A stretch of 64,000 bases of DNA from Candidatus Woesearchaeota archaeon (GCA_047602755.1 JBLKOM010000005.1:78936-142935), one strand, 5' to 3'. Positions 6,501 to 56,959 are shown, counted from the first letter of the stretch. The notes: a model not told the origin generated them from the sequence alone. Numbers and translations are program-made.

Positions 6501-6508
6501 CTTATAAA

Positions 6509-28777: not shown

Positions 28778-31384
28778 TTAATGTACTTCTAAAAAGTTGT
28801 ATCTTCTGTTGAGTAATTTTATTATATCAAATATAGTTACAACTATCACTGATATTACAATTGCAATAGCCCAGTATTGCCAAGTAATAGGTACAACTTC
28901 AAAGATTGTGTGTGCAGCTGTATAAATTATACCTATTGTAATTATTAATGATAAGATTGAGGCATATAATAAATATTTATTTGCATCAAATGGTAACTCA
29001 TATACTGGATATCTAAATGACCTAAAAGTAAATGCATTCATTACTCCAAATAATACTATTGTTATAAAAGCCGTTGTTCTGGCAATCTCGATTGGAACGT
29101 TGAATATATTTAACATTACTGTAAATGTACCCATAGCAAATAATGTCATAAGAGCTGTTGCAAATATTAAAACTTTAAACAAGTTTTTATCAATTAATTC
29201 AGATCCTTTACGAGGAGGAACTTCCATGACGTCAAATGAAGGTGGATTAAATCCAAGCATAATAGCTGTTATTTCATCTGAAAGTATATTTACAAATAAA
29301 ATTTGTATTGCAACTAATGGTAAAGGCATTTCAAGCATAATTGCAATAAATATGAATAGTAATTGTGTTAATGTAATTGATATTTGATAAATTGAAACTT
29401 TTTGAATATTCTTAAAAATTGTTCTACCTTCTGCAACGGCATCAACTATTGTTGCAAAATTATCATCTTTTAAAACAAGATCAGCAACTTCTCTTGATAC
29501 ATCAGTACCATTTTTACCCATTGCAATACCAATATGGGATTCTTTAAGTGCAGGTGCATCATTTACACCATCACCAGTCATGCTTACTATTTCACCATTT
29601 TCTTTTAATGCTTTTACAATTTTTAATTTATGTTCAGGACGCACTCTTGCAAATATATTAATCTCTTTTACTTTTTGTCGTATTTCTTCATCACTTAAAT
29701 GGTCAAGATCATTACCTTCCATTACATTTCCAATTAGCCCTATCTGTTTTGCAACAGCCATAGCTGTTATTTTATTATCACCAGTTAGCATTTTTACATT
29801 TATGCCTGATTTTAGACATGCTTCAATAGCAGCTTTTGCTTCTTCACGAGGAGGATCTTCCATCCCAACAATTCCTAAGAAAATGAGATTCTTTTCTATT
29901 GATTTTTTGTCTAATGATTTGTAGGCTAAACCTAAAGTTCGTAAACTTTGTTTAGTCATTTTTTCATTTTCAGTTAATATCTTTTTACGTTCTTTTTTGG
30001 TTAGTTTTAATACACGATTACCTTTACGATAATGAGTACATCTAGAAAGTAATATTTCTGGTGCGCCTTTTGAATAAACTTCTTTATTTTTTGATTCTTG
30101 GCAAACTACTGTCATAACTTTAGCATGCGAATTAAATGGTATTTCTTCAAGCCTTTCATTTTTAATATCTTCTTTGTATAAATTTGCTTTTCCAGCAAGA
30201 ATTAAAAGTGCAATTTCTGTTGGCGAACCATATGTTTTAACTTGTTCATGATGTTTTTCTATTCGTGAATCATTACATAAAACTGAAGTTTTTAGTAGTA
30301 AGCTTAAGTGTTGATTTTTTTCTGGTGATATCTTTTTTTTACCGTTATAAAAATCCCCTGTTATTTCATAACCTGTTCCTTTAACTTCAAAAAGAGAATT
30401 ATTAGTAAATATTTTTTTAACAGTCATTTCTCCTTTTGTTAATGTTCCTGTCTTATCAGTACAAACAACAGTTGTTTCTCCTAATGTTTCAATAATTGAC
30501 ATACGGTTAACTATTGCATTCTTTTTTGCCATTCCTCTAGCTCCAGCTGCAAGAGTTGTAATTAATACAACTGGAAATCCCTCTGGGAAAGCTGATACAG
30601 ATAATGCAATTATAACAATAAGAATTTCAACAAAATCGCTACCTGTTAAAGGAGCACCTCTTACACTCATAACAACACCCGTAACAATAGCGAAAAAAAT
30701 TGCGTTTAAAGCCATGTATTTTACAATAGTATTAACTTTTTTTTGTAGTGTTATTTCTTTTTCAGCAGAGGAAATCATACCTGCAATTTTCCCAAATTCA
30801 GTATTCATACCAGTATGAGTTATCTTAACAGTACATTTACCATTAACTATAAATGTACCCATATATACTTGATGTTCTTGTTCATAATTTTTCTCATCAG
30901 GTGTTGCTTTTTTATTTATTTCTTTAGATTCGCCTGTTAAAATACTTTCATTTACACGTAAGTCTTTAGAATCTAATATGATTCCATCAGCAGGGATCTT
31001 ATCACCCATTCTTAATAATAATATATCTCCAGGCGCTAATTCTCTTGAAGGGATTGTTTCTTCTTTCCCGTTTCTTATTACTGTTGACATTTGTGTTATC
31101 ATTTGTTTTAATGATTTTATTGCTGATTCAGCTTTGTATTCCATTATGAAACCAACAACAACAACAATTATTATAACGGCTAGAATAGTGTATGCAGTAA
31201 TTGCTTTATCAACATAAAACGATACAATCATAGCAAAAATCAATAAATAAATAATGTAATTTGTTTTTATTTGTCTGAGAAATATTTTAAGTGGGGATAC
31301 AGTTAACATCTCTGTTATTTCATTATATCCATATTGCTTTATAGCATCTTTTGCTTGTTCTGCAGTCAAACCTGTATAATTCAT
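28778..31384 (-). CDS. P-type cation-transporting ATPase (type II, Ca2+/Mg2+-like)
   Basis: CTDKTGTLT phosphorylation site. TGDNKITA and GDGVNDAPAL motifs. 10 TM. 868 aa. Confidence 0.9.
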   Translation of the reverse strand: MNYTGLTAEQAKDAIKQYGYNEITEMLTVSPLKIFLRQIKTNYIIYLLIFAMIVSFYVDKAITAYTILAVIIIVVVVGFIMEYKAESAIKSLKQMITQMSTVIRNGKEETIPSRELAPGDILLLRMGDKIPADGIILDSKDLRVNESILTGESKEINKKATPDEKNYEQEHQVYMGTFIVNGKCTVKITHTGMNTEFGKIAGMISSAEKEITLQKKVNTIVKYMALNAIFFAIVTGVVMSVRGAPLTGSDFVEILIVIIALSVSAFPEGFPVVLITTLAAGARGMAKKNAIVNRMSIIETLGETTVVCTDKTGTLTKGEMTVKKIFTNNSLFEVKGTGYEITGDFYNGKKKISPEKNQHLSLLLKTSVLCNDSRIEKHHEQVKTYGSPTEIALLILAGKANLYKEDIKNERLEEIPFNSHAKVMTVVCQESKNKEVYSKGAPEILLSRCTHYRKGNRVLKLTKKERKKILTENEKMTKQSLRTLGLAYKSLDKKSIEKNLIFLGIVGMEDPPREEAKAAIEACLKSGINVKMLTGDNKITAMAVAKQIGLIGNVMEGNDLDHLSDEEIRQKVKEINIFARVRPEHKLKIVKALKENGEIVSMTGDGVNDAPALKESHIGIAMGKNGTDVSREVADLVLKDDNFATIVDAVAEGRTIFKNIQKVSIYQISITLTQLLFIFIAIMLEMPLPLVAIQILFVNILSDEITAIMLGFNPPSFDVMEVPPRKGSELIDKNLFKVLIFATALMTLFAMGTFTVMLNIFNVPIEIARTTAFITIVLFGVMNAFTFRSFRYPVYELPFDANKYLLYASILSLIITIGIIYTAAHTIFEVVPITWQYWAIAIVISVIVVTIFDIIKLLNRRYNFLEVH

Positions 31385-31561
31385 AAAATATGCACACCAT
31401 CCTTTTTTTTTTAAAGTTAGTTTATTAACTTATGTTACTTCTATTGTGTTATAAACATAATATTTGCAAAAAACCTATAACTAATTAAATGAATAAAAAT
31501 AATTTAGATTTAATTTGCAACCATAATATATATATATGGATATTAGTTCTTTATAAGAGTT

Positions 31562-31948
31562 ATGGTGTGGATATATGCTGTCATAGGAATAATTGTATCA
31601 ATTTATGTTATGTATGTTGAAAAGAAGCTAAAACATAATGCTAAATATAAGGCAATTTGTGATATTAATAGTAAAATTTTTTGTACAAAAGTAATATTAG
31701 ATAGATCAGCTTATCTTGTTTTTGGACTTCATAATTCAATAATAGGTATTTTATATTATATTACAGTTATTATTGCATCATTTTATGCTAATTTTATATT
31801 AATAGTTGTTATTTCAATTCCTGCTATAATGATGACAATTTATTTGATGATTGTTACTTTAATTAGAATTAGAAAAATATGTATTATGTGCAGCATAACT
31901 CATATACTCAATATAATTATATTTATAATTGCTGTATATGGGTTGTAA
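31562..31948 (+). CDS. VKOR-like (vitamin K epoxide reductase family) membrane oxidoreductase
   Basis: Four TM helices, loop cysteines (KAICD...KIFC) and a CIMC (CxxC) at the start of the last TM. Confidence 0.45.
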   Translation: MVWIYAVIGIIVSIYVMYVEKKLKHNAKYKAICDINSKIFCTKVILDRSAYLVFGLHNSIIGILYYITVIIASFYANFILIVVISIPAIMMTIYLMIVTLIRIRKICIMCSITHILNIIIFIIAVYGL

Positions 31949-32157
31949 TGAATTTTGTTTTATTATAAAATGAATAAGAAATGTAGTATTAAACTAACAC
32001 TTGATGCATTTGTTGTTATAATTCTTGCTATATTTTTTCTTATTTTTGCAATATTGTTTATTAGAAATATTTTTGGTGATTATTTTTGTATAAGAAAATG
32101 GTGTCTTTTTAAGTGAACACTTAATAGATTTTTTTAAATTGTTGTTTTCTATTGGTT

Positions 32158-32727
32158 TTATTCAAACTTTGAAAGAATAGTTAGACCGATTGCTTCAACA
32201 GTGTCTTTTGCTTCTTCACTTCCTTTAGATGTTACAAGAATTAAATATTTATCCTTGACAATCCAAAGATGATAAAAATACACATCAGGATCATTAAATT
32301 CAGCTCCATAATCTTTTTCACTATTTCTATAAAACCTACTCATATCGCCATATTCATTCTCACTAATCAATCCTTCAGCACTTCGATAATGTGATGAAGA
32401 GTATTGATATGTACCGTTTAAATCATCAAGATTTGTAAATTTTTGAATTTGAATAATTACTTCAGAATCATAACTGTTAATGTTAAAATAACACATATAG
32501 TCTTGCTCTAAAGGAGAAGTTGGACTTGTTTCATACACATTTACTTCACAATCTGAATTTAAAATACTTATGTCAAGTTCTACTAAATCCTTTTCGTCTA
32601 AAAGTAAGTTATTAATAGAAGTAATTTCATAACCTACTTCTAAATCATTATTTTGTATTGAATTACATCCTAATATAAATATAAAAGAAAGCATTAGTAT
32701 TATTAAATATTTCATGTAATTAGCCAT
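32158..32727 (-). CDS. Putative lipoprotein
   Basis: Signal peptide with an ILGC lipobox-like motif. Confidence 0.45.
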   Translation of the reverse strand: MANYMKYLIILMLSFIFILGCNSIQNNDLEVGYEITSINNLLLDEKDLVELDISILNSDCEVNVYETSPTSPLEQDYMCYFNINSYDSEVIIQIQKFTNLDDLNGTYQYSSSHYRSAEGLISENEYGDMSRFYRNSEKDYGAEFNDPDVYFYHLWIVKDKYLILVTSKGSEEAKDTVEAIGLTILSKFE

Positions 32728-32849
32728 ATATTTAGAGATTAGCTTTTATTAGTTATAAACTTTTCTTTGTTTTGAAGAAGATCATTTTGAAGGTTTTAAT
32801 TTTTATAATTAGTAATTTTTAACAAAATAAAAAATAAAAATAAAAAAAA

Positions 32850-33344
32850 TTAAATCTCTTTGTTAAAAAGATATTTCTCAAGATTTAATTTGTTTCCACC
32901 ACCTGACATTACTAATGATAATGCAATAACAAGAAATGCTAATACTAATATGAAATTTCTAATTTGAAATGCCATAAGATCACCTAAGTGTCTTCCAAAA
33001 ATAATAATAACCATTACGCTTGCAATTGCTAGTGCTGCATATCTTGTATATAACCCAAGTAAAACAAAAATACCACCAATAAACTCAAATAATGTCGCTA
33101 AAAGTCCCCAAGCTACAGGAATCATTGTAAATCCAACACTTGTTGCTAAACCCACCCATCTTTCAGGACCTGCTGTCATTTTTCCTAAGCCGTAAATAAA
33201 TATGAAGGATAACCCTAGAAAAATTCTTAGTATTAATATACTATATTCACTGCAATTACATTTGCAAAGTGATTTTGTTTTATTATCTGATTTTGTAGCG
33301 TTTGATTTTGTACTATTTGATTTTTTTATTTTTTTCTTAACCAT
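32850..33344 (-). CDS. DoxX family membrane protein with an N-terminal Cys-rich tail
   Basis: RIFLGLSFIFIYGLGK...FEFIGGIFVLLGLYTRYAA fits DoxX. Confidence 0.65.
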   Translation of the reverse strand: MVKKKIKKSNSTKSNATKSDNKTKSLCKCNCSEYSILILRIFLGLSFIFIYGLGKMTAGPERWVGLATSVGFTMIPVAWGLLATLFEFIGGIFVLLGLYTRYAALAIASVMVIIIFGRHLGDLMAFQIRNFILVLAFLVIALSLVMSGGGNKLNLEKYLFNKEI

Positions 33345-33418: not shown

Positions 33419-33859
33419 TTAAGCGTTATTCTGCTTTTCTTTATTTAATGCAGAACATATGCATTTATCATTGAAGTTACATGTAAGATTATTTTTGTTG
33501 CAATGTTCAATAAAAAATTTGATTTTATTAATTGTTTTTGGATGTAATGAATGTTCTATTTTTAATGCATCCTTTGCAGCAATCTCTTTTGGAATACCTA
33601 ACAAAATAAAGAATTCTTCAAATAAAATATGCTTATTCTTTACAACATTTGCAATACTTTTGCCTTTTTCGGTTAATGTGATTGGTGAATGAGAATCTTG
33701 ATTTATTAAATCAAATTTTCTTAAAGAATTCATCATAATGCTTACAGAAGCAGGTGTAACATTATGGATTTCTGCTAAATCTCTTACTCTTGCATAACCT
33801 TTTGTCTTAATAAGGCTTGAAATATCATGTAAATAATCTTCTTGAGTTCGTGTTAGCAT
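33419..33859 (-). CDS. DtxR/MntR-family metal-dependent transcriptional regulator
   Basis: N-terminal wHTH (TQEDYLHDISSLIKTKGYARVRDLAEIHNVTPASVS) followed by the metal-binding/dimerisation helix region. Confidence 0.85.
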   Translation of the reverse strand: MLTRTQEDYLHDISSLIKTKGYARVRDLAEIHNVTPASVSIMMNSLRKFDLINQDSHSPITLTEKGKSIANVVKNKHILFEEFFILLGIPKEIAAKDALKIEHSLHPKTINKIKFFIEHCNKNNLTCNFNDKCICSALNKEKQNNA

Positions 33860-33872
33860 GTTTTTAGTTAAT

Positions 33873-33911
33873 TTTAGGTTATTTAAAAAAGTTTAGGTTA
33901 GCTTAATAAAC
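33873..33911. promoter_or_regulatory. DtxR-type operator (iron-box-like) in the divergent promoter region
   Basis: TTAGGTTAGCTTAATAAAC at 33893-33911 matches the DtxR consensus TTAGGTTAGCCTAACCTAA at 14 of 19 positions with a perfect left half. A second TTTAGGTTA half-site lies at 33873-33881. The inverted repeat GCTTAAT-N12-ATTAAGC spans 33901-33926. Confidence 0.55.
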
Positions 33912-33960
33912 TTAAATTAATTAAGCAAAAGGATATATAAGCTTAAACATTACTTATAAT

Positions 33961-34338
33961 ATGGTTTGTAATATATGTCATATTAGAAATGAAAGAATAA
34001 GATCAGGTAGAAATTTAAAAGCACTTTTATTGACTTCAAGAATTTTTGCAGATTTAGAAGATAGTGATGTTTGTGAAATAGGTGATGTTGTAAAAAAACT
34101 TCAGGAGCAATATTTAGGTAACAATGAACAATCTGAGAACACAACTTATGTTTTTTATAATGGTAAAGATGCATATATATTTCAAAACAAAGGAATTAAA
34201 ATTGTAGAAGGTGTTGATTTTGAAGAACTTTTTGCTACACATATAGCTCATCCCAATGTAGTTCTTATTAGACCAGACCATGAACATGGCAAATGCTTGT
34301 ATAATCAGGGTTATACGACTATTGACAAAATTGTTTAA
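33961..34338 (+). CDS. Hypothetical protein (125 aa), first gene after the DtxR-type operator
   Basis: ORF with N-terminal CNICH and C-terminal His/Cys residues. Confidence 0.4.
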   Translation: MVCNICHIRNERIRSGRNLKALLLTSRIFADLEDSDVCEIGDVVKKLQEQYLGNNEQSENTTYVFYNGKDAYIFQNKGIKIVEGVDFEELFATHIAHPNVVLIRPDHEHGKCLYNQGYTTIDKIV

Positions 34339-34362
34339 TGATTAGATAACATAAAAAAATGT

Positions 34363-34983
34363 ATGAAACCTCTTAAAATGAAAGTTTTTAGCACAAAAAT
34401 ATCAAATGAAATTGATTTTATTGGATTTTTTAGAAAAGTTTATTTAGTTCTTTTTTCTATATCAAAATCACTATTAAGCTCAAATAAATTAAAACTTTTT
34501 TTTATGATTACATTAGGGATTTATTTCTACATGAACAATCAATTAATATTTTTTATGATTGCGTTTGCTTTGATTGAAGCAATATCCTGTTTTGTGTTAA
34601 GGGCAGTTTATGTTAAAGGTTGGGTAGAAATTCTATCTTTTACAACAATACTAATATCACTTAATTATGGATTTAAAGTTGCTTTTTTTTATTTTATATT
34701 TGCTTATATGGTATCTATGGCATCACGAATGAGAATATATCCTGTTGAGCCCCCTTATTTGTTAATAAGAGCACTTACTTTAGGATTAATTCCAGTAATT
34801 TTACCATTCTCAAATCTTATAATGGTAACATTAATCACAATGATAATTCAGCGCTTATTAATTGGTCCTGTTTTAGTGTTTTTTGGAGTTCCATTTGTTA
34901 GAGTTGCGTATGAATCAGTACTTAATATAATATTTACTTTGGCGTTAATCAATTATTTTGCTCCAATAATGACTTTCTTATAA
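34363..34983 (+). CDS. Polytopic membrane protein, hypothetical
   Basis: About 6 TM. 2 nt before the next gene. Confidence 0.45.
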   Translation: MKPLKMKVFSTKISNEIDFIGFFRKVYLVLFSISKSLLSSNKLKLFFMITLGIYFYMNNQLIFFMIAFALIEAISCFVLRAVYVKGWVEILSFTTILISLNYGFKVAFFYFIFAYMVSMASRMRIYPVEPPYLLIRALTLGLIPVILPFSNLIMVTLITMIIQRLLIGPVLVFFGVPFVRVAYESVLNIIFTLALINYFAPIMTFL

Positions 34984-34985
34984 AA

Positions 34986-36494
34986 ATGGAAAAAAAACTT
35001 AATAAAAATATTAAACTATTGAAAGATAATGCTTTTTTTATTAATCCAGTAAATATTGGATTTGAAGAAATAACGCAAAAAACTCAAGATATTACTGAGC
35101 AACTACATAGTAGTTCATATCTTAAGTTCTGCTTTAACTCAAACGTTACTAAAATAATTGGTAGAGAAACATTTGATTCAATTTTAGAATTATCATCTGG
35201 AAACAATGATCTTGGGTTTTTTTCATATTTTATTGATGAAATTAAGAGTGATGCAGAAAAAACAGATTATAATTTATCAAATTATTCTGGCGGTAGAGGA
35301 GACTATTTTACAATTAATAAGATGTTATTAATTGAGAATAAACTTTATGAGAGATTAACAAAAAAAAAGAATAAGTATTCTGTAAATAATATTACATTAA
35401 CTTTTTCTGGACAGGGTGCATATTCTGCAATCGCATCTTATCTGAAATCAAGTATTCATTCAAAAAAAAATATTTTATTTTTTGATTCAACTTATTGTTC
35501 TAATTACAAACCCTTTTCAAGAAAAGATCTCAATTTAAAATTTATTAAAACTGATAAAAATAAATTTTTACCAAAAGTTTCTGAATTATTAAAGGCCATA
35601 AATAAAAATTCGTCTATGTTATTTTTAGTTAAATTTCATAATCCTTCTGGTCAATTTTATTCAAGAAATGAATTAGAGCAAATAATTAAGAAATTAAAAG
35701 AATGTAATGTCTACTTAGTTTATTCTGAAGCATATGATTATCTTTCTTGGGACACAAAATATGATAATCATGTGATTAGTATTTCAGAAGAATTGAATTA
35801 TGATAAATTAATACGTGTAAAAACATTGTCTAAAGATAGAGGCCTTGCAGGACTTCGTGCAGGATATATGATTGGTCCAGAGGAGATAGTAAAACATACT
35901 ATAAAATTTAATGATGAAATAGCCTACAATCCACCTATGATTAATAATCCTATATTTATTATTCACCTTTATATTACTTATTTTAATGCTACTGGGAAAT
36001 ATATCTCTGATTTAAATAATGAAATATCTAATGCAAAAATAAGAAAGATTTCAAATAAGACAAAAAAAAATGAAATCAAACAGATAAATTATGTAAAAAA
36101 TAATTTTCAATTTATTCTGAAAGAACTCTTCAATAAAAAAATGGATAAAAAATTATATGGAGAATATATTGAAAATCAAAAATATGGGTTAGTTATACCC
36201 TCTGGTGGTATCAATTGCATTCTAAGAATAAAATATCTTGAATCATTTGATGAAATTGATATCTTTCGTAAGTTATATATTAATACAGGTTTAATAATGC
36301 ATAGTTCTAAGTTTATTTTAAAAAAAAAAGATGGTTATTGGATTAGAATTACATTATCGCATAAATTTCAAAAAATTAAGAAAATAATCTCGGTATTGAA
36401 AGAATTAGAATTAAATTTATCAAAATCAAATAATGATTATGAATTTCTGAATAAAAATACTATAAAAGTTAAAATAGGTGGAAAATATGAATGA
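34986..36494 (+). CDS. PLP-dependent aminotransferase class I/II fold enzyme with a ~140-aa N-terminal extension
   Basis: HNPSGQ (NPTG-like) motif and SKDRGLAGLRAGY, the PLP-lysine motif SK..G..G.R.GY. Confidence 0.65.
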   Translation: MEKKLNKNIKLLKDNAFFINPVNIGFEEITQKTQDITEQLHSSSYLKFCFNSNVTKIIGRETFDSILELSSGNNDLGFFSYFIDEIKSDAEKTDYNLSNYSGGRGDYFTINKMLLIENKLYERLTKKKNKYSVNNITLTFSGQGAYSAIASYLKSSIHSKKNILFFDSTYCSNYKPFSRKDLNLKFIKTDKNKFLPKVSELLKAINKNSSMLFLVKFHNPSGQFYSRNELEQIIKKLKECNVYLVYSEAYDYLSWDTKYDNHVISISEELNYDKLIRVKTLSKDRGLAGLRAGYMIGPEEIVKHTIKFNDEIAYNPPMINNPIFIIHLYITYFNATGKYISDLNNEISNAKIRKISNKTKKNEIKQINYVKNNFQFILKELFNKKMDKKLYGEYIENQKYGLVIPSGGINCILRIKYLESFDEIDIFRKLYINTGLIMHSSKFILKKKDGYWIRITLSHKFQKIKKIISVLKELELNLSKSNNDYEFLNKNTIKVKIGGKYE

Positions 36495-37167
36495 AAACTT
36501 AAAAACAACATGGGCTAGTACACAAAATGAAGAAGATGGTATGAATAATGATCATTATCCTCTTTGGATTGAAATGATAGAAAAGATGACTGAAAAAGAT
36601 TTAACTAACTTAACTGTCTTTGATTTTGGTTGTAATCAAGGACAATTTTTACGCGTTTTATATAGCAAAAAACCTTTTCTTAATGGTTTTGGAGTAGATA
36701 TCGCAAAAAATTCAATTGAAATTGCTAATCAAAATAAAAAAGAATTGCCAGTCGAATATCATGCAACTGATGACATTTCTTTTTTAGATAATTCTATTGA
36801 TATTGCCTTTAGTCATGAAGTTATTTATTTGCTTGAAGATTTAGATAGGCATGTCAAAGATATTTATTCAGTCTTAAAAGCAAAAGGTGTATATTATGTA
36901 GCACTAGGATGTCATACAGATAATCCAACCTGGCCTGCAATACGAAAATATGTTAGAGAAAAAATAAAATCTAATTTTTGTGATTATAGTTTAGATTATA
37001 TTTCAGATATTTTTAGAAAAAATGGATTTATTATATCTGCACAAAAATTTAAACTTAATGGTTTTATAAAAATATCAGATAATAGTAGTTGTTTTCATAG
37101 TGTTATGCAATTCTTAAATTATTATGATGATTATAAGATTTTGTTTAAATTTGAAAAAAAAGATTAA
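36478..37167 (+). CDS. Class I SAM-dependent methyltransferase
   Basis: Motif I VFDFGCNQGQF and an acidic residue after beta2. Confidence 0.65.
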   Translation: MENMNENLKTTWASTQNEEDGMNNDHYPLWIEMIEKMTEKDLTNLTVFDFGCNQGQFLRVLYSKKPFLNGFGVDIAKNSIEIANQNKKELPVEYHATDDISFLDNSIDIAFSHEVIYLLEDLDRHVKDIYSVLKAKGVYYVALGCHTDNPTWPAIRKYVREKIKSNFCDYSLDYISDIFRKNGFIISAQKFKLNGFIKISDNSSCFHSVMQFLNYYDDYKILFKFEKKD

Positions 37168-37199
37168 AGTCTTAGTTTAACGTTTTATGGAATGCTAAA

Positions 37200-38042
37200 A
37201 TGATACAAAAAGATTTGTTGATTGATGGCCAATTTTGGAGTTATTATTCAAATAAAGCTGATAATAAAAGTTTAGGTAGTGATAAACCATTAATTGTTTT
37301 ACTTCATCCTTCGTCAACAGATGGAAGAATTATGAATGAGCAATTAGATTATTTTGCTAATGATGATTTTCATGCAATTGCACCTAACTTAACATTGAGT
37401 AGAAACAAGAATAATAAAGAAACTATTGATTATTTAATTCAGAAAATAGAAGAAATACCTTTCTTTGATGAATTACCTATCACCGAATTTTTAGAATTAT
37501 ATTCTTTACAAGCTTTATCAGAACAAACACAAACCATTGTTGAGTCTGAGTTAAATAATAATTCTAAAGCAATTTTTATTGGTGTTTCACTAGGTGGATA
37601 TGTAGCTTGTCAAATTAAATTGGATAATGAGAAAAATGAAACTTTTTCTTATGGTATCCAACAAAGTTCATTATCAGATAAAGAAAAAAAAGATTGGATA
37701 CTTGGTTCGTTATCAAGTTACATTCATCTAAATAATTCATCAAAAAAACAAGAGAGTGCAGAACATTTTTTACAAAGAAGAAGACATTATTTTGGAAATC
37801 CTGTTTTAGTAGGCAATAGTTGGAATCATTATTTTGAATATATGAAAAAATCAATTTTAGATGACACTCAACTATTTGGTTTATCTCATATTGCGCTCCA
37901 CGTTGCTATTTCCCATTATCAAGGAAATGCTAATTTTGCAAATTCAGATTTATTTAAAGATGTTAAATTACCTCATATTCCAGTTATTGGGGAATATGGG
38001 AAAGAGTTCTATAAGTTAATAAAAACAATTAGTAGTAATTAA
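37200..38042 (+). CDS. Alpha/beta-hydrolase fold protein
   Basis: Nucleophile elbow GVSLGG. HP-rich N-terminus LIVLLHPSS. Confidence 0.55.
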   Translation: MIQKDLLIDGQFWSYYSNKADNKSLGSDKPLIVLLHPSSTDGRIMNEQLDYFANDDFHAIAPNLTLSRNKNNKETIDYLIQKIEEIPFFDELPITEFLELYSLQALSEQTQTIVESELNNNSKAIFIGVSLGGYVACQIKLDNEKNETFSYGIQQSSLSDKEKKDWILGSLSSYIHLNNSSKKQESAEHFLQRRRHYFGNPVLVGNSWNHYFEYMKKSILDDTQLFGLSHIALHVAISHYQGNANFANSDLFKDVKLPHIPVIGEYGKEFYKLIKTISSN

Positions 38043-38139: not shown

Positions 38140-38430
38140 ATGACAGAAAAGAGCGAATTTACAATCGATAAAGTATTAACAATGTCAGCTGAGGCTTATA
38201 TGCGTAGTAGAGATTTGCCAGGTGATGCATACCGTTTTGTTGGTGTTCATACATCTTCTGTGCGAAGCGTAGATGTTATGGCTGAATTTGTTAAGTGTGT
38301 TCCAAAAAAAGCAACTGTTGTTGTTGATTATCAAATGACGCCTCTTTTTGCAAATGGTATTGATCGAATGGTGATGGCATCAGGAACTGCAATAATTATT
38401 GACACATCAGCATATCGTGGTGGGGGTTAG
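38140..38430 (+). CDS. Hypothetical small protein in a locally GC-enriched segment
   Basis: 96 aa. GC is noticeably above the neighbouring genes. Confidence 0.4.
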   Translation: MTEKSEFTIDKVLTMSAEAYMRSRDLPGDAYRFVGVHTSSVRSVDVMAEFVKCVPKKATVVVDYQMTPLFANGIDRMVMASGTAIIIDTSAYRGGG

Positions 38431-38601: not shown

Positions 38602-38937
38602 CTATTGTTTTCCTAGAAATCGGTAAAGATTTTCAAATTCTTCAAAATCCATATTATTTTCAGTTACTCTATAAACATCATAAACTGGTCCATCAACTCT
38701 TAACCAATGCGATGCGACTCTTTCATCTTCAATAGTTAACTCACCCCACTGCAAATCAATATGCCCATATTTTTTTTGTTCTCTAATAGAATGACCTTGA
38801 GGTTTATTTGAAAAAGATGAAAGCAATGACACCAATTTGTCCACTGCACATTCTAGAGTAATCCCTTCTTCAAAGTGGATTTTGAAATTACTTCCATTAC
38901 TTCTATCTCTCCTTAATTCCTCTACTAAATATTCCAT
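38602..38937 (-). CDS. Hypothetical small acidic protein
   Basis: 111 aa. No motif recognised. Confidence 0.4.
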   Translation of the reverse strand: MEYLVEELRRDRSNGSNFKIHFEEGITLECAVDKLVSLLSSFSNKPQGHSIREQKKYGHIDLQWGELTIEDERVASHWLRVDGPVYDVYRVTENNMDFEEFENLYRFLGKQ

Positions 38938-44685: not shown

Positions 44686-44776
44686 TAAATCAACTAATTT
44701 TTTATTAGGATTAATATATTATAATTTATACTAATTCTAAATATTGCAATACAGTTAACCTCATATATTAATATAT

Positions 44777-44932
44777 TATTGCCAGCCAATTATAGCTGAT
44801 AAATGATCATCTTTTTTTATGCATTTTGTGCAGTAGCATTCACCCATATAGCGTATAAGAACTTTATTTTGCTTACAGCTTGAACATTCTCCAATTACAA
44901 CTTCATAGCCATTAAATGTGTCTGTATCCATG
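44777..44932 (-). CDS. Small (51 aa) zinc-ribbon protein
   Basis: Reverse-strand ORF MDTDTFNGYEVVIGECSSCKQNKVLIRYMGECYCTKCIKKDDH... with CxxC...CxxC. It falls below the ORF-track length cut-off. Confidence 0.35.
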
Positions 44933-45016
44933 TTTATCACCTAAGAATATTGTCAGTATACTTATTTATATACTCTACATAAGAATGTCCAATGATAATG
45001 ATATTATTTGTTTCTT

Positions 45017-45039
45017 TATTGATAATGATTATCAATAAC
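45017..45039. promoter_or_regulatory. Perfect Fur/Zur-box palindrome in the promoter of the COG0523 GTPase gene
   Basis: TTATTGATAATGATTATCAATAA is an 11-1-11 perfect inverted repeat containing the Fur-box core TGATAATNATTATCA. It lies about 30 nt upstream of the ATG at 45070. Confidence 0.65.
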
Positions 45040-45069: not shown

Positions 45070-46326
45070 ATGGCAAAAACAAAACAAAAAATAACAAAAA
45101 AAGATACTAAAGCTAAAGTGAAAAAAAATAAAGTAAAAAAAGGTAAAATAAACAAAAAAATACCAGTTACTATTCTTAGTGGTTTTTTAGGCAGTGGTAA
45201 GACCACACTAATTAATCATATTCTTAAAACTAAGAAAAATATGAGAGTTGCATTAATAGTTAATGACATGGCTGCATTTAATATTGATGGACAAAATGTT
45301 TCAGATAAAATATCACAAACTGAAGAAAAACTAGTTCAAATCCAGAATGGATGTATATGTTGTACACTAAGAGAAGATTTATTTAAAGAAGTAAAAAAAA
45401 TTGCAAAGGAAAATAAATATGATTATTTAATTATAGAATCAAGTGGGATTTCTGAACCTTTACCAGTGGCTGCAACTTTTACTTTTCCACTAAATGAGAA
45501 AGAATGTTTAAGTGATGTTGCAGAAGTTGATACAATGGTTACAGTTGTTGATGCAAAAAATTTTATTGATGAGTATAATTCAACTGAAACATTAAAGGAT
45601 AGAAAACAACAAGTATCAGAAGAAGATGAAAGATCAGTTGTTGATCTGATGGTTGATCAATTAGAATTTGCGAATATTATTTTAGTCAATAAAGTAGATT
45701 TAGTTAATAAAAAACAATTAAAAGAGATACATGGAATGATTCGTTCCATTAATTCAGAAGCAGAAATTATTGACACTATAAATGGACAAGTTAAGCTTGA
45801 TAAAATAATGCATACTAAAAAATTTAATTTTGAAAAAGCATCAGAATATCCAACTTGGCTGAAAGAGATACAACGAAAAAATGATCATGTTCCTGAAACA
45901 GAAGAATATGGTATTTCAAGCTTTGTTTTTAAGTCAAAATTACCACTTCATCCTGAGAGATTTTGGAAGTTTATACATACAAAACATCCAGGTTTAATAC
46001 GTGCAAAAGGATACTTTTGGTTATCAACAAGAATGAAATTTGTTGGAGATTATCAACTTGCAGGTAAACAAAAAGAATTTGGGGTTGCTGGTGAATGGTG
46101 GGTAACTGTAGACAAAAAAGAATGGCCTAAAGGATTAAAGAAAATAATAAAACCAGTATGGGATGAAAAATTTGGTGATAGACGGCAAGAGATGGTTTTT
46201 ATAGGAATAAAGATAAGTAAAAAACAAATTGAAAAACAATTAAAAGAATGCCTTTTAACCAAAGAAGAATTAAAGCAAGATTATGAGAACTTTAATGACC
46301 CATTTCCTAAGTGGGTAGCTAAGTAG
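45070..46326 (+). CDS. COG0523 (CobW/ZigA/YjiA-family) metallochaperone GTPase
   Basis: Walker A GFLGSGKTT, metal-binding GCICCT (CxCC) and a CobW C-terminal domain. Lys-rich N-terminal extension. Confidence 0.85.
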   Translation: MAKTKQKITKKDTKAKVKKNKVKKGKINKKIPVTILSGFLGSGKTTLINHILKTKKNMRVALIVNDMAAFNIDGQNVSDKISQTEEKLVQIQNGCICCTLREDLFKEVKKIAKENKYDYLIIESSGISEPLPVAATFTFPLNEKECLSDVAEVDTMVTVVDAKNFIDEYNSTETLKDRKQQVSEEDERSVVDLMVDQLEFANIILVNKVDLVNKKQLKEIHGMIRSINSEAEIIDTINGQVKLDKIMHTKKFNFEKASEYPTWLKEIQRKNDHVPETEEYGISSFVFKSKLPLHPERFWKFIHTKHPGLIRAKGYFWLSTRMKFVGDYQLAGKQKEFGVAGEWWVTVDKKEWPKGLKKIIKPVWDEKFGDRRQEMVFIGIKISKKQIEKQLKECLLTKEELKQDYENFNDPFPKWVAK

Positions 46327-51498: not shown

Positions 51499-52335
51499 TT
51501 ATGCAATTGATTTTATTCTAATATAATTAATTACATTTTGATATAGTAATATTAAAATAAATATTAGTGCATTAAATAAAATAATTGTTCCGGACACTGC
51601 AAAGTCAAAATAATATGCAATAATTAGTCCTAAAATAACAGTTAATACAGAAATTATAATTGAAGAGAATGTTGTTTTTTTAAAGCTGGTTTTTAATTGA
51701 AGTGCAGACGCTGCAGGTAATATTATTAATGCAGAAGCAAGCATTAGTCCAACAATATTCATTGCTGATACAATCGTTATTGCTGTAAGTATAATTAACA
51801 TTGTATTTAAGAAATTAACATTTATTCCAGATATTTTTGCAGATTCTTCATCAAATGAAATATAAAATAATTCTTTGTTAAATACAAGAATAAAAATAAT
51901 AACAGTAATAGCAAGAAATACTGATAAATATAATTCAGTAGTACTAACTGATAAAATACTCCCAAATAAGTAACTTAGAATATCAACATTAAAACCACTT
52001 GCCATACTTATTATAAAAATGCCTATGCCTAAACTTGCATGACTAACAATCCCTATTGCTGTATCTCCATGAATATTTGATTTTTCTTTTAGTTTTAATA
52101 TACCTAATGATCCGATTAATCCAAATAATAATGCACTAATAAATGGTACAAAATTAAATAAAAGACCAGTAGCAACTCCACCAAATGAGATGTGCGCAAT
52201 ACCATCTCCAATCAATGAAAATCTTCTTAGAACTAAAAATATTCCAAGAAGTGAGCATGCAATTGCAATAAGTATTCCTACAATAAAGGCTCTTTGCATA
52301 AATCCATAAGATAAAATTTCAATCATATTTTTCAC
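51499..52335 (-). CDS. znuB: Zn/Mn ABC transporter permease (ABC-3/ZnuB family)
   Basis: 8 TM. Family-typical G-rich helices. Part of an operon with the ATPase and the binding protein. Confidence 0.85.
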   Translation of the reverse strand: MKNMIEILSYGFMQRAFIVGILIAIACSLLGIFLVLRRFSLIGDGIAHISFGGVATGLLFNFVPFISALLFGLIGSLGILKLKEKSNIHGDTAIGIVSHASLGIGIFIISMASGFNVDILSYLFGSILSVSTTELYLSVFLAITVIIFILVFNKELFYISFDEESAKISGINVNFLNTMLIILTAITIVSAMNIVGLMLASALIILPAASALQLKTSFKKTTFSSIIISVLTVILGLIIAYYFDFAVSGTIILFNALIFILILLYQNVINYIRIKSIA

Positions 52336-52357
52336 AATTTATTTTTGTTTAATAATA

Positions 52358-53191
52358 TCATTTATCGAAACATAATTCATGCTCCTCATGATTATGTTTA
52401 TGTTCATGTTTATGATGATTAAGGTGGTCATGAATCTGTTCATGATCTGGGTCATTAGCACAAAATTCTTTATGACTTCCATAAAATTTTAAAGTTTGAT
52501 TAATACTTGCAACTTTAGTTACATATTTAGTTATTCTATTAACATCATGTGAAACTAGTATTATTGTAATACCATCTTGATTCAGTTTTCCAAGCAAAAA
52601 ATAGAATGATTTTTGATTTTGTTGATCAACTCCTGTAGTTGGTTCATCTAATATTAGTATTTCTGGATTTGTAATTATTGCTTTTGCAATTAAAACACGT
52701 TGTTGTTCACCACCTGATAATTCACTAATTCTAGAATCTTTATACTTGAGCATTTTTACAATAGATAATGCTTGAATTATTTTCTCATTATCAATCTTAT
52801 TAAGTATTTTTGGGAATTTTTTGCTTGATAATAAGCCCATTGCTACTACTTCATATACTGTAGCAGGAAAATTTTTTTCGATATTTGTTGCTTTTTGTGG
52901 TACATACCCTATTTTATTCCACTCGCTAAATTTGCTAATTTCTTTTCCAAATAACTTAATTGTTCCTTTTCTTGGTTTAATTATGCCTAATATGATTTTT
53001 AGAAGTGTTGTCTTACCTGATCCATTTGGTCCTATCAAACCTATAAAATCACCCTTTTTAATAGACATAGAAACATCTTTAACAACATCTTTTTTGGTAT
53101 ATGAAAAACTTATACTATTTAATTCTAATAACTTTTTTGTATTTGAATTAGTTCTATTTTTTGTTATTAATTTATTCATTATTGCATTCAA
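52358..53191 (-). CDS. znuC: Zn/Mn ABC transporter ATP-binding protein with a His-rich C-terminus
   Basis: GPNGSGKTT, LSGGEQQR, ILDEPTTGVD and the C-terminal tail HDHLNHHKHEHKHNHEEHE. Confidence 0.85.
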   Translation of the reverse strand: MNAIMNKLITKNRTNSNTKKLLELNSISFSYTKKDVVKDVSMSIKKGDFIGLIGPNGSGKTTLLKIILGIIKPRKGTIKLFGKEISKFSEWNKIGYVPQKATNIEKNFPATVYEVVAMGLLSSKKFPKILNKIDNEKIIQALSIVKMLKYKDSRISELSGGEQQRVLIAKAIITNPEILILDEPTTGVDQQNQKSFYFLLGKLNQDGITIILVSHDVNRITKYVTKVASINQTLKFYGSHKEFCANDPDHEQIHDHLNHHKHEHKHNHEEHELCFDK

Positions 53192-54467
53192 GACCTATCT
53201 CTAGGTTATCAAGATTTTCTTTCATAAGATCAATAAATGTAATTCCTTGATCTATTTCATCTTGCATTAAATTATGTCCTGGATTTAATACTAGTATCTC
53301 AGCACCTACTTCTTGTGCGATTGTTTGAGCCATTCTTGGATTTACCATTTTTTCAAAGTAGATATATTTTATATCATTTTCTTTAGTTAAATCAACAATC
53401 TGCCTCAATGTCTGAGGTGTTGGCTCTGCATTAGGTGATAAACCATATGCTGATTTTACCTCTAAATTGTATCTACTTGCAAGATATCTAAATGAATCAT
53501 GTCCACCAGTTATAAAAATTGAATGTTTACAATTTGTTAAACTATTTGTATATAACTTATCTAATTCGTCAAATAATTCCATATATTCAATTGCATTATC
53601 AAGATAATAATAATTATTTTCTGAATCTATTGCTGATAAAACTTCATAAAGTTCATGTAAGATTAGTTTATTATTTTCAAAATCAAGCCAAAAATGAGGA
53701 TCATATTCTCCATGATGGTGATCATGTTCTTCATGATGTTCATATTCATGTTCTAAAAATTCATAAATTATTTCTTCAATCTCATGTAAAGCATCATCTG
53801 AAGTCATTATATTATCTTCCCATTCATGTATGATTTTATCAATTATCTTTATTATTTCATGGAAATCATGATTATGTTCTTCATGATCATTCTCATCATG
53901 TTCTTCATGATGATCATTTTCTAAAAAATGATGGATTATTTCTTCAATCTCATGTAAAGCTTTATTTGAAGTCATTATATTATCTTCCCACTCATGTATA
54001 TAATATTCAATATTTGTTATTATTTCTTTTATTTCATGATTATCATGATATTCATCATGTGAGTCTAATAGATTTACAAAAGAACTTGTATCTATTATTT
54101 TTAAATTTGGATTATTTATTCCTTCTAATATATCATGTGCCCAAGGTTCCATATCTTCTCCAATGAAAATGAAAATATCTGCTGAATTTATTTTTCTTAT
54201 ATCGCTTGGTTTTGGTTCAAATGTATGTGCTTCTGCTCCTGGCGGTAATAATAATGTGGTTTCTACATTCTCTCCTCCGACTTGTTTAGCAAATTCATAT
54301 AATGGATATAATGTTGTTACAATAACTATTTTGTCTTCAGTTTCATATTCTTTAGAACCAGTAGAACATGCCATTAGTGAGAAAAGAATCGTACTTACTA
54401 ATACTGAAATAATAGTAATTTTCTTTAATATTTTTAGATAATTATTGATTTTTTTAATATTATACAT
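53172..54467 (-). CDS. znuA: Metal (zinc) ABC transporter substrate-binding protein with a duplicated His/Glu-rich loop
   Basis: TroA/ZnuA cluster A-I fold motifs: N-terminal lipoprotein-like signal, HTFEP, DPHFWLD and a long H/E/D-rich insert. Confidence 0.8.
   Translation of the reverse strand: MYNIKKINNYLKILKKITIISVLVSTILFSLMACSTGSKEYETEDKIVIVTTLYPLYEFAKQVGGENVETTLLLPPGAEAHTFEPKPSDIRKINSADIFIFIGEDMEPWAHDILEGINNPNLKIIDTSSFVNLLDSHDEYHDNHEIKEIITNIEYYIHEWEDNIMTSNKALHEIEEIIHHFLENDHHEEHDENDHEEHNHDFHEIIKIIDKIIHEWEDNIMTSDDALHEIEEIIYEFLEHEYEHHEEHDHHHGEYDPHFWLDFENNKLILHELYEVLSAIDSENNYYYLDNAIEYMELFDELDKLYTNSLTNCKHSIFITGGHDSFRYLASRYNLEVKSAYGLSPNAEPTPQTLRQIVDLTKENDIKYIYFEKMVNPRMAQTIAQEVGAEILVLNPGHNLMQDEIDQGITFIDLMKENLDNLEIGLECNNE
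53771..53999. repeat. Internal ~60-nt direct repeat, two copies about 168 nt apart, within the znuA His-rich loop region
   Basis: 53771-53830 and 53939-53999 are about 90% identical and encode IHEWEDNIMTS(N/D)(K/D)ALHEIEEII twice. Confidence 0.7.
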
Positions 54468-54508: not shown

Positions 54509-54531
54509 TTATTGATTTAGATTATCAATAA
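54509..54531. promoter_or_regulatory. Fur/Zur-box-like inverted repeat in the znuA / 54579 divergent promoter
   Basis: TTATTGATTTAGATTATCAATAA shares both arms with the 45017 box and differs at 3 central positions. Confidence 0.55.
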
Positions 54532-54921: not shown

Positions 54922-55305
54922 ATGGTAAAAAAACGTAATACTCGTCAAAAAGAAATAATGGAAAATGAATTAGCTAAGATAGATTCATTTTTTACAGCAG
55001 ATGAATTTCATGAGAAAATATTAGCAAAAGATAAAAATATGGGGATTGCGACAATTTATCGTTTTTTAAGTGAATTAAAAGAAAACAATAAAATTTATTC
55101 TTATATTTGTGATAGGAAAACAGTATTTACAACACAAGACAATAGTCATTGTCATTTTATTTGTGAGAAAACAGGTAAAATTATTCATTTCAAGATTGAT
55201 TCAATAGATTTTCTAAAGAATAAAATACCAGGTTCAATAAAAAGTTTTCAACTGGAAATAAGAGGAGAATGTAAAGATGATTGCAATAAATGTTGCAAAG
55301 ATTAA
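54922..55305 (+). CDS. Fur-family metalloregulator, probably Zur
   Basis: The wHTH region (IYRFLSELKENNKI) is followed by a HCHF and a C-terminal Cys cluster CKDDCNKCCKD. Confidence 0.8.
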   Translation: MVKKRNTRQKEIMENELAKIDSFFTADEFHEKILAKDKNMGIATIYRFLSELKENNKIYSYICDRKTVFTTQDNSHCHFICEKTGKIIHFKIDSIDFLKNKIPGSIKSFQLEIRGECKDDCNKCCKD

Positions 55306-55969: not shown

Positions 55970-56959
55970 TTAATTCTTTTTGCAATATTGATATGCATAA
56001 AAAGAAGCTGTAACAGCCTGCGAAACACCAATTATTGCTTGCTTCCAATCAACATCAGTTACATCTCCAGCAGCAAAGAATCCCTTAATATTTGTTTGAG
56101 ATTTTTTATCAATAATAATTTCTTTTTTCTTATTAATTTTTACACCCAATTCTTTTGCTAATTCGCTTCTAGGGATATGGCCAATATATACAAATACGCC
56201 TTCAACATTAAGTTGTTTGTTTTTCTTATATGGCTTCTTCAATAAAATGTTATTCACAGTTTTATTTCCTTTTATTTCTACAATTTCATTATTATTTATT
56301 ACTTCTATTTTTCTTTTTTTTACTAATTCATCAAGTATTTTTTGATTGTGATGTTCTGGATGGAGTTCAGATTCATTATTAACAATAAAAACTTTTTTTG
56401 CATATTCTGTTACTAGAATTGCTTCTTTAACAGCGCTATCTCCTCCACCTGCTAGTGCTACAATTTTACCTTTGATATATGCTGCATCACATAAAGCACA
56501 ATAATTAACACCTCTACCCATAAATTCTTTTTCACCAGGAATGTTTAGATGTTTTACCTTGCTTCCTGTTGCATAAATGATTGTTTTAGAACTAAAAGTT
56601 AAACTTCCTACTAAAACCTTAAAGCCTTTTTTTGTTTTTGTTATTTTGTTGACAATATCAATAAGAAAATCAACATCATAATCCATAGCATGATTCTCCA
56701 TCAATTCAGTTAGTTTTTGTCCAGGAATAGATATAAAACCAGGATAGTTTTCAACTCTTCCTGTTTCTACAAGAGTTCCACCTGGTACTTCACCTATAAT
56801 TAAAACTTTTAACCCCAGTCGTGCAGCATACATTGCTGAAGAATAGCCTGATACACCTGTCCCTATAACAATAGTGTCATAAAACTTATTTACATCAGGT
56901 TCATGTTTAAAATTATTTCTTGGAGAAAAGATTATATCATTTGTAATATTATTTTTCAT
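55970..56959 (-). CDS. trxB: Thioredoxin-disulfide reductase
   Basis: FAD-binding GTGVSGYSSA, redox-active CALCDA (CxxC) and NADPH-binding GGGDSAVKEA. Confidence 0.85.
   Translation of the reverse strand: MKNNITNDIIFSPRNNFKHEPDVNKFYDTIVIGTGVSGYSSAMYAARLGLKVLIIGEVPGGTLVETGRVENYPGFISIPGQKLTELMENHAMDYDVDFLIDIVNKITKTKKGFKVLVGSLTFSSKTIIYATGSKVKHLNIPGEKEFMGRGVNYCALCDAAYIKGKIVALAGGGDSAVKEAILVTEYAKKVFIVNNESELHPEHHNQKILDELVKKRKIEVINNNEIVEIKGNKTVNNILLKKPYKKNKQLNVEGVFVYIGHIPRSELAKELGVKINKKKEIIIDKKSQTNIKGFFAAGDVTDVDWKQAIIGVSQAVTASFYAYQYCKKN

Follow-up and report, generated by a model that had tools for sequence, protein, structure and literature searches.

The described systems closest to the locus reported here are the cnt opine metallophores, the archaeal nicotianamine synthase (NAS) clusters, the S-adenosylmethionine (SAM)-consuming enzymes Mur24, LipJ and SphL, and the siderophore cluster of Haloferax volcanii; the locus itself, a gene for a metal-dependent regulator and a divergently oriented operon of five genes, lies in a 64,000-nucleotide (64-kb) stretch of a Candidatus Woesearchaeota metagenome-assembled genome, which we call the window and which is AT-rich (GC ~27%). 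The cnt opine metallophores (staphylopine, pseudopaline) are encoded by systems that combine CntK, CntL and CntM with an exporter and an importer under Fur/Zur regulation. A cnt-type chelator is a small SAM-derived aminocarboxylate, and the pyridoxal 5'-phosphate (PLP) enzymes Mur24, LipJ and SphL, which have the aspartate aminotransferase (AAT) fold, pass the aminocarboxypropyl group from SAM on to an amine by way of a vinylglycine-PLP intermediate, and in net terms do what NAS or CntL does (PMC10491745), which makes PLP chemistry a possible substitute for transfer of the NAS type. In H. volcanii, the DtxR-family regulator TroR controls the iucABDC-bdb-dat siderophore cluster, which includes PLP enzymes (PMC10783522). 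Comparing the window operon with these systems, we found that three of its five genes have homologues in archaeal NAS clusters, that it holds no NAS, and that it encodes a PLP enzyme of a rare family, several other members of which also adjoin metal-homeostasis genes. With functional statements resting throughout on homology and gene context, we somewhat favour the reading that this is a compact cluster that makes, tailors or exports an aminocarboxylate chelator resembling nicotianamine, paired with a local sensor of the MntR/DtxR family.

Accessory genes shared with archaeal NAS clusters

Two archaeal clusters built around a homologue of the Methanothermobacter synthase MtNAS (PDB 3FPE/3O31) carry relatives of the window genes. 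In the first (L015), the order is an FTR1 iron permease on the minus strand, a Methyltransf_11 methyltransferase, NAS (PF03059; match to thermonicotianamine synthase, E 6e-21), a membrane protein, a methyltransferase of the MTS/PrmA type, a hydrolase and, on the minus strand, a DtxR-family regulator; in the second (L016), it is NAS, an MTS-type methyltransferase, a hydrolase and a membrane protein. The window methyltransferase is 50% identical to that of L015 over its full length (E 6e-81), the window hydrolase is 35% and 32% identical to those of L015 and L016 (E 1e-53 and 1e-41), and the window membrane protein (P0019 family) is 47-52% identical to its two counterparts, with 47% for the closest, that of L015. 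This accessory trio is shared with the NAS-type clusters in a tight, same-strand layout, its order differing from one to the other. Moreover, the gene that the methyltransferase gene overlaps is that for NAS in L015 and, at its 3' end, that for the PLP enzyme in the window, so that translational coupling to the scaffold-building enzyme would be common to the two, and a two-domain DtxR-family regulator adjoins the cluster in L015 as it does in the window.

In contrast to L015 and L016, the window lacks NAS: no protein of the cluster matched it, and tblastn searches with the NAS of both loci found none in the 64 kb. A second methyltransferase of the MTS type is also missing from the window, and FTR1 is not adjacent, whereas the PLP enzyme and the gene for a 125-aa protein were not found in L015 or L016. 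The two regulators differ in their metal ligands as well, with D/H/H/L/E/H in the window against M/K/Y/C/E/H in L015, where M/C/E/H occupy the DtxR primary iron site. Because the trio is shared, whereas NAS and the MTS-type methyltransferase are missing and a PLP enzyme and an ORFan are found in addition, we regard the window operon as a variant of the archaeal NAS-type cluster; the equivalence of the PLP enzyme to NAS that this implies rests on two NAS-type loci. An earlier, sequence-only reading of the window had treated the five genes as one block, but no such unit is conserved, since the NAS clusters are without the PLP enzyme and the 125-aa gene and the loci of PLP relatives are without the other genes. 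Its broader idea of an undescribed metal-linked pathway of the nicotianamine type is supported by context, namely by the trio shared with NAS clusters and by PLP relatives beside Fur and COG0523 genes, and it is the product, the metal and the regulation that we infer.

The methyltransferase itself (Methyltransf_11, E 2e-14) showed no similarity to NAS or CntL in Pfam, and its PDB matches were methyltransferases only (E up to 1). The 229-aa protein, for which a NAS-like nature had been considered, is an ordinary class I methyltransferase, and we rejected the NAS-like alternative. The hydrolase, named 'alpha/beta fold hydrolase' at NCBI, is weakly recognisable on its own, although the L015 homologue matches Abhydrolase_6 with E 3.5e-10; an LHPS motif (oxyanion) and the nucleophile elbow GVSLG (Ser130, GxSxG) are conserved in three hydrolase homologues, while no confident choice could be made of the residues that serve as catalytic Asp and His. 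Word-indexed searches with the 280-aa hydrolase returned only itself, its homologues surfacing through the contexts of the membrane protein; because such homologues exist in L015 and L016, the result reflects a limit of sensitivity and not orphan status.

The 206-aa membrane protein belongs to no Pfam or NCBIfam family and is a candidate exporter or membrane enzyme. It had been described as having six transmembrane segments; it is indeed polytopic, with about 5-6 such segments by hydropathy. Its family is small, six homologues being found by an exhaustive HMMER search of 1.84 billion representatives, and the two closest lie inside the L015 and L016 NAS-methyltransferase-hydrolase clusters. The 125-aa protein, which contains Cys and His residues (C3, C6, H7, C38, H94, H97, H107, H109 and C112), found only itself among 5.8 billion proteins and matched no Pfam or NCBIfam family, and is in this sense an ORFan. 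Its single-sequence AlphaFold2 model, with a predicted local distance difference test score (pLDDT) of 54, was unusable and was left out of the fold comparison.

With the cnt systems the window shares the logic of a metal-regulated operon and a membrane component. Unlike them, it is without a CntL/NAS-like enzyme, CntM, CntK or a CntA-F-type importer, a Pfam scan having found none of the CntL, CntM, CntK and importer types among the five operon genes and ~40 neighbouring open reading frames (ORFs); its regulator is of the MntR/DtxR family, its host is an archaeon, and its methyltransferase and hydrolase have no cnt counterpart. Judged by gene content, the cluster is a member of neither the cnt nor the NAS system, CntL/NAS and CntM being absent. 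The Haloferax system resembles it in its archaeal DtxR-family regulator, in tandem TTTAGG-containing sites near a TATA box and in a chelator operon, in the window a putative one, with PLP enzymes. It differs in that its pathway is of the nonribosomal-peptide-synthetase (NRPS)-independent siderophore (NIS) type and in that TroR is a global iron regulator, whereas the window sites occur only at the regulator's own divergent promoter.

The PLP enzyme family and its genomic settings

The PLP enzyme matches Pfam PF00155 (E 1e-23), and its AlphaFold2 model (pLDDT 80, predicted template modelling score 0.83) found its best Foldseek matches among class I aminotransferases, at 13-18% identity. The class I/II aminotransferase fold assigned to it from the sequence therefore stands; the N-terminal extension assigned along with it amounts to ~60 aa, and there is in addition a helical insertion in the C-terminal domain. 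As between an aminotransferase and a 1-aminocyclopropane-1-carboxylate (ACC) synthase, the fold resembles class I aminotransferases and not ACC synthase specifically, and we rejected an ACC-synthase-like assignment, since ACC synthases were matched with E ~1e-4 as against 1e-12 for chains like aspartate aminotransferase (AspAT), which reveals no specific relationship. All NCBIfam equivalogs stayed far under their cutoffs, the best being GntC with 86.6 against 415 bits and HisC reaching 72 against 277; the VioD and ACC synthase models were also matched below cutoff.

The residues expected of a fold-type I enzyme are present, namely the Schiff-base Lys283 of the S-x-S-K motif, the phosphate-binding Arg291, Asn219 and Tyr250 at O3' and the alpha-carboxylate-binding Arg454, and all five are invariant in nine of nine sequences of our first alignment (A1). 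In a wider set of 13, Tyr250 is replaced by Phe in one member (L009), and the other four remain invariant. However, the position of the Asp that pairs with the pyridine nitrogen N1 in fold-type I enzymes is taken by Ser247 in the window enzyme, by Ser in 12 of the 13 family members and by Ala in the remaining one, so that the family signature reads SE[AV][YF] where fold-type I enzymes carry D-E-V-Y; alignments to 1o4s, 8wkj, 4my5 and 7vrx are consistent with the assignment of Ser247. The loss of this Asp in all members speaks against transamination of the ordinary kind. To judge by PLP enzymes of fold type II, some of which bear a Ser, its presence at the N1-Asp position would be compatible with replacement or racemisation chemistry. 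The family also has two invariant N-terminal motifs, SGNN[DN] and NY[SA]GGRGDYF.

Mur24, LipJ, SphL, ACC synthase and the cyclases GntC and VioD are PLP enzymes of the AspAT superfamily with elimination/aza-addition chemistry. The window enzyme is like them in its AAT fold and in the Lys, Arg and Asn/Tyr contacts to the cofactor, and, as in the VioC/VioD pair, one member of its family adjoins a hydroxylase of the Asp/Arg type. It is unlike them in scoring far under every family cutoff and in the replacement of the N1 Asp by Ser or Ala. Relatives are few: nine full-length homologues of 38-47% identity were found in 5.8 billion proteins and four more came from contig scans, which brings the total to ~13 (P0002-P0009, L008-L010 and L013 are among the relatives).

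The settings in which these relatives occur point repeatedly to metals. In one bacterial locus (L005), the PLP gene stands between a lipoprotein gene and a gene for an IucA/IucC and FhuF protein, that is, a NIS synthetase, with a Fur gene on the opposite strand next to the lipoprotein. Six loci of a single Bdellovibrionales-like clade have the order COG0523 protein (P-loop, CVCC), PLP enzyme and AsnB-like amidotransferase with an N-terminal Cys. Elsewhere an Asp/Arg hydroxylase, the PLP enzyme and an AsnB-like protein follow one another (L001), the PLP enzyme is followed by an AsnB-like protein (L006 and L007), or it precedes CbiA/ParA-like ATPases (L009 and L010). None of the other operon genes of the window was present at the loci of the PLP family. 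By gene neighbourhood, the family is tied three independent times to metal homeostasis, through Fur with a NIS synthetase, through COG0523 and through the MntR/DtxR regulator of the window, and, on the same kind of evidence, it repeatedly adjoins carboxylate-activating enzymes.

These loci have further features of their own. The Fur-lipoprotein promoter of L005 (2283-2351) contains a 7-1-7 palindrome, TGCAAATAATTTGCA, which looks like a Fur-family operator, and a second element of the form GCAAA-N3-TTTGC. The COG0523 proteins of L002-L004, L008, L013 and L014 are unusually long (562-579 aa) and end in a C-terminal extension of ~250 aa without a Pfam match; in L008 the gene appears to be split into parts of 397 and 165 aa, as a frameshift or a fault in the assembly might produce.

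The regulator, the divergent promoter and a second metal regulon

Both domains of the 146-aa regulator, which NCBI names a 'metal-dependent transcriptional regulator', pass the Pfam gathering cutoffs: the N-terminal winged helix for DNA binding (PF01325, Fe_dep_repress, 39.7 against 26 bits) and the domain for metal binding and dimerisation that follows it (PF02742, Fe_dep_repr_C, 47.6 against 27 bits). It has two domains without the SH3-like third and ends in a tail with four Cys (C120, C127, C133 and C135). Its closest PDB match is Bacillus subtilis MntR, with which residues 1-123 align without a gap (E 8e-18), while IdeR/DtxR was matched weakly in the same search (E ~4e-4). It is like B. 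subtilis MntR (PDB 1ON1) in length class, in two-domain architecture and in keeping D8, H77, E102 and H103. The six positions that hold the ligands in MntR are occupied by D8, H11, H77, L99, E102 and H103, so that the protein departs from the canonical binuclear manganese site (D8, E11, H77, E99, E102, H103), in which Glu11 has become His and Glu99 Leu; the four-Cys tail is a further difference, and the NCBIfam MntR equivalog NF003025 is not reached (91.5 against 138 bits). Nor does it have the DtxR primary iron site (Met10/Cys102/Glu105/His106), having Asp and Leu at the Met and Cys positions. On sequence criteria, the regulator is a bona fide member of the DtxR/MntR family but not a canonical MntR, and not a canonical DtxR either. 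Because of its ligand changes, Cys tail and sub-cutoff score, the metal specificity of MntR is not transferable to it. The label 'iron' under which the sequence-only reading had placed it is not supported, the protein being nearer to MntR and its ligand set non-canonical; nor does the protein justify the name 'iron box' for its putative site.

The spacer between the regulator and the operon measures 101 bp and holds two predicted promoters back to back (Table 1), with TATA elements assigned from the spacing pattern of the window's first genes: a TATA-like element stands ~21-32 nt before the ATG of the 125-aa gene, of the regulator, of an ABC gene at 39141, of cobW and of a 111-aa gene (p111). 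With such spacing, the regulator and operon transcripts would be leaderless. As the sequence-only reading had stated, the spacer contains a 19-mer, TTAGGTTAGCTTAATAAAC (33893-33911), that agrees with the DtxR consensus TTAGGTTAGCCTAACCTAA at 14 of 19 positions, perfectly at positions 1-10 and poorly in the right half, together with an upstream half-site. The score by itself is not significant, because ~1.2 matches of at least 14/19 are expected per 64 kb; two were observed in the window, and 71% of simulated 64-kb sequences had one or more. The exact half-site TTAGGTTA has four copies in the 64 kb, as expected by chance, yet two of the four lie in the spacer, 19 bp apart, and two copies within 101 bp have a probability of ~2e-5 under a first-order Markov model. 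The exact 9-mer TTTAGGTTA occurs across the 64 kb in box 1 and box 2 only.

DtxR-family regulation by tandem TTTAGG-containing semi-palindromes near a TATA box has been described for Haloferax TroR, which represses siderophore genes and whose experimentally defined motif is TTTAGGC-N3-CCTAAAA (PMC10783522). Box 2 agrees with this motif at 11 of the 14 specified positions (three mismatches), which is not significant window-wide, as is also true of the scan for the DtxR consensus. An imperfect 32-bp palindrome overlaps box 2 and abuts the BRE/TATA of the operon (BRE, transcription factor B recognition element), and is a candidate for an alternative or additional operator. Rfam gave no matches, and scans for bacterial sigma-70 promoters and terminators were uninformative for an archaeon. 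A contig scan for the regulator recovered none of its close relatives, and phylogenetic footprinting of the operator was hence impossible; in the only related cluster, L015, the regulator is 27% identical to that of the window and the repeats differ. A short palindromic element, TTTATGGAATGCTAAAA (37184-37200), which lies ahead of the hydrolase gene in the gap of 32 nt, has three mismatches to the TroR-type motif in both orientations and may well be due to chance. In L015, the spacer between FTR1 and the methyltransferase (6302-6539) has two direct repeats containing AAGTTCGG that flank the predicted FTR1 TATA, a layout like that of the window with a different sequence, and also a TCCTAA-CT-TTAGGA palindrome.

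The arrangement of the boxes bears on whether the operon is under metal control at all. Both TTAGGTTA boxes flank the predicted TATA of the regulator, which on sequence is the classical geometry of autorepression; they overlap the regulator promoter and not the operon TATA, and the nearer one ends ~15-20 bp upstream of the operon BRE. The position of the 19-mer, read earlier as an iron-box-like operator next to the operon, is therefore more suited to repression of the promoter from which the regulator itself is transcribed. This geometry is what one would expect if the metal link were incidental, with the regulator controlling only itself, perhaps along with the downstream DoxX and lipoprotein genes, and the operon making an unrelated SAM/PLP-derived metabolite, for instance a compatible solute or a methylated derivative of an amino acid; or if it were inverted, with the operon activated by metal excess. 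A box upstream of the BRE is typical of activators in archaea, and in B. subtilis MntR is known as an activator, too, namely of efflux genes. The 3' neighbour of the regulator on the same strand is DoxX, which may be co-transcribed with it, to judge from a gap of 74 nt and a GGTGAT Shine-Dalgarno sequence before its start. Pairs of an aminocarboxypropyl transferase and an N-methyltransferase, moreover, also make non-chelating betaines, as BtaA/BtaB do in the case of diacylglyceryl trimethylhomoserine (DGTS). We nevertheless consider an incidental or inverted link unlikely: L015, the cluster with the three homologous genes, has independently a regulator of the DtxR family and a divergently transcribed gene for an iron permease, the PLP family is independently associated with Fur, a NIS synthetase and COG0523, and the 32-bp palindrome overlapping box 2 reaches as far as the operon BRE.

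Every ORF was found where the sequence-only reading had placed it, and the tight spacing that it reported was confirmed, with gaps of 24, 2 and 32 nt and a PLP/methyltransferase overlap of 8-17 nt, depending on the methyltransferase start. The 229-aa ORF from GTG 36478 exists, but AGGTGG stands before ATG 36487, and the latter is probably the true start, as far as sequence allows; the GTG-start protein is missing from the protein collection, where all neighbouring proteins are present (NCBI entries MFT4303956-65), because ATG 36487 is probably the real one. Genes internal to the transcription units of the window have Shine-Dalgarno sequences of the GGTGAT type.

Table 1. Genes and candidate promoter elements of the regulator-operon locus; positions are those of the 64-kb window.
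Feature	Position	Strand	Basis or remark
MntR/DtxR-family regulator, 146 aa	33419..33859	-	Pfam PF01325 + PF02742
Box 1, DtxR-type half-site TTTAGGTTA	33873..33881	+	Between the regulator's predicted TATA and its start codon
Predicted regulator TATA, TTTTTTAAATAA on the minus strand	33880..33891	-	~-32 to -21 from the ATG
Box 2, TTTAGGTTAGCTTAATAAAC	33892..33911	+	Holds the 19-mer; on the BRE side of the regulator TATA; ~50-68 nt upstream of the operon ATG
Imperfect 32-bp palindrome, TTAGCTTAATAAACTT/AAATTAATTAAGCAAA, 13/16	33898..33929		Repeat search
Predicted operon TATA, ATATATAA	33933..33940	+	-28 to -21 from ATG 33961
125-aa Cys/His protein	33961..34338	+	No Pfam or NCBIfam match
206-aa polytopic membrane protein	34363..34983	+	Hydropathy
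502-aa PLP enzyme	34986..36494	+	Pfam PF00155, Aminotran_1_2
SAM-dependent methyltransferase, class I	36487..37167 (ATG; 226 aa) or from GTG 36478 (229 aa)	+	Methyltransf_11
280-aa alpha/beta hydrolase, divergent	37200..38042	+	Homology and motifs

Just 3' of the operon lie two small ORFan genes, 38140-38430 (+) and 38602-38937 (-), with a GC content of 39% and 32% as against 23-29% in the cluster. The 96-aa product of one shows a faint YbjQ-like 'heavy-metal-binding' match (E 0.04). Both genes may be foreign or unrelated, and we did not count them as members of the cluster. The flanks at 28778-33344 and 55970-58394 encode a P2-type cation ATPase, VKOR, DoxX, a thioredoxin-reductase-like flavoprotein and a glutaredoxin/thioredoxin-like protein, so that redox and disulfide-handling genes are concentrated around the metal loci.

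A second metal regulon in the window is separate from the MntR/DtxR-type one. A gene of the Fur family (Zur-like) at 54922-55305 (+) stands beside an operon of znuA, an ABC ATPase and an ABC-3 permease at 51499-54467 (-), and a COG0523 gene (cobW with CobW_C, CICC motif) lies at 45070-46326 (+). The exact 20-mer TTGATWWWGATTATCAATAA has just two copies, one upstream of cobW (45019-45038) and one upstream of znuA (54512-54531); the core TGATAATGATTATCA forms a perfect 7-1-7 box of the Fur family, which abuts the predicted cobW TATA. Divergent from cobW, with the Fur-type boxes between them, is a small ORF at 44776-44940 (-), of 54 aa from GTG or 51 aa from ATG, whose two CxxC pairs are zinc-ribbon-like and which may encode a zinc-regulated small protein. 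An older survey had archaea without Fur/Zur homologues (PMC2770081). Going by these genes and boxes, control of the zinc type appears to be handled by the Fur-family protein, and manganese, iron or another metal would therefore be left to the MntR/DtxR-like sensor.

Proposed working and alternative readings

If the operon serves a nicotianamine-like chelator, as we somewhat prefer to think, it may work as follows. The metal-loaded regulator would bind both TTTAGGTTA boxes, which stand on either side of its own TATA, and so control the back-to-back promoters, where the binding, its sign and the metal are what we infer. The five genes would be transcribed as a leaderless unit and expressed as coupled genes, in line with the spacing and overlap observed. 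The methyltransferase, the hydrolase and the membrane protein form a conserved module that, by homology and context, accompanies NAS in other archaea. The PLP enzyme would most likely supply or elaborate an amino-acid or aminocarboxyalkyl scaffold through PLP-dependent replacement chemistry, with SAM or else an amino acid in activated or hydroxylated form as the substrate. The methyltransferase and the hydrolase may then modify and unmask the product, for example by methylation of a carboxyl or amine group followed by hydrolysis of an ester or amide, and the membrane protein may carry it across the membrane.

Several points weigh against this assignment. An opine dehydrogenase, a NIS synthetase and NAS are all absent from the cluster and from the 64-kb window, and the cluster has no chelate importer next to it. 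NAS was never found together with the PLP enzyme in the loci seen, so that replacement of one by the other rests on position and shared partners, and the PLP family has no specific similarity to ACC synthase or to enzymes of the Mur24 type, structures like AspAT and HisC scoring higher than ACC synthase. On the regulatory side, a 14/19 match is not rare in DNA so rich in AT, the 19-mer with its poor right half lies upstream of the operon BRE/TATA rather than over the TATA, and the regulators of the window and L015 are only distantly alike. Distant relatives of the membrane protein occur in unrelated contexts. DPANN archaea have minimal biosynthetic capacity, and what the products of archaeal NAS do physiologically is, to our knowledge, not established.

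The absence of a synthase would also be explained if the cluster tailored or salvaged a nicotianamine-like compound that a host supplied or that was made by a NAS whose gene lies beyond the window, with the PLP enzyme acting downstream as a transaminase like nicotianamine aminotransferase (NAAT) and the methyltransferase and hydrolase as tailoring enzymes. DPANN archaea are host-dependent, the window covers 64 kb of a 153-kb contig, and NAS followed by a PLP aminotransferase (NAAT) is a known pairing in the synthesis of mugineic-acid phytosiderophores in plants; the class I aminotransferase fold with Arg454 and Lys283 intact would suit such a role. The active site does not, for the loss of the pyridine-N Asp in every member of the family is unfavourable for classical transamination, and the context agrees poorly, the bacterial members having no NAS nearby and standing beside carboxylate-activating ligases, and L015 and L016 having NAS and no such PLP enzyme. 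Tailoring or salvage thus strikes us as improbable, too.

We dismiss as very improbable a housekeeping role, be it that of an aminotransferase like HisC or AspC or that of a pimelate/biotin module like BioC/BioH/BioF: the enzyme does belong to PF00155, as does BioF, and BioC (41 bits) and BioH (13 bits) are the top NCBIfam match of the methyltransferase and the sole one of the hydrolase, but these scores, like that of HisC, are far below cutoff (185 for BioC, 449 for BioH), the neighbours of the PLP enzyme in structure and sequence are class I aminotransferases and not alpha-oxoamine synthases, a family of ~13 among billions of proteins with an atypical active site is unlike a housekeeping one, no his or bioA/B/D genes were found nearby, and the homologues of the methyltransferase and hydrolase flank NAS and not biotin genes.

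Within the chelator reading that we prefer, a bolder version is possible, though we hold it to be doubtful: the ~13-member PLP family could be a new fold-type I enzyme for chelator scaffolds, working by aminocarboxyalkyl transfer or by beta/gamma-replacement and displacing NAS here, and the cluster could be the first metallophore pathway of DPANN archaea, under a local sensor of the MntR/DtxR type. In the literature searched we found no description of DPANN metallophores, of the PLP family, of the COG0523-PLP-AsnB cluster or of the operon partners of archaeal NAS, which is no proof of novelty.

If the chelator reading is true, genome-reduced, host-dependent DPANN archaea would invest in a metal-regulated chelator, which would bear on their trace-metal supply and perhaps on that of their hosts as well. 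Archaeal NAS would be tied to a recurring accessory module of two methyltransferases, a hydrolase and a membrane protein, and to iron-type regulators and permeases. The rare PLP family, which is without a near-universal catalytic residue, would be a candidate for a new chelator-building chemistry, and it may serve as a marker in mining genomes for metallophores of neither the NRPS nor the NIS type.

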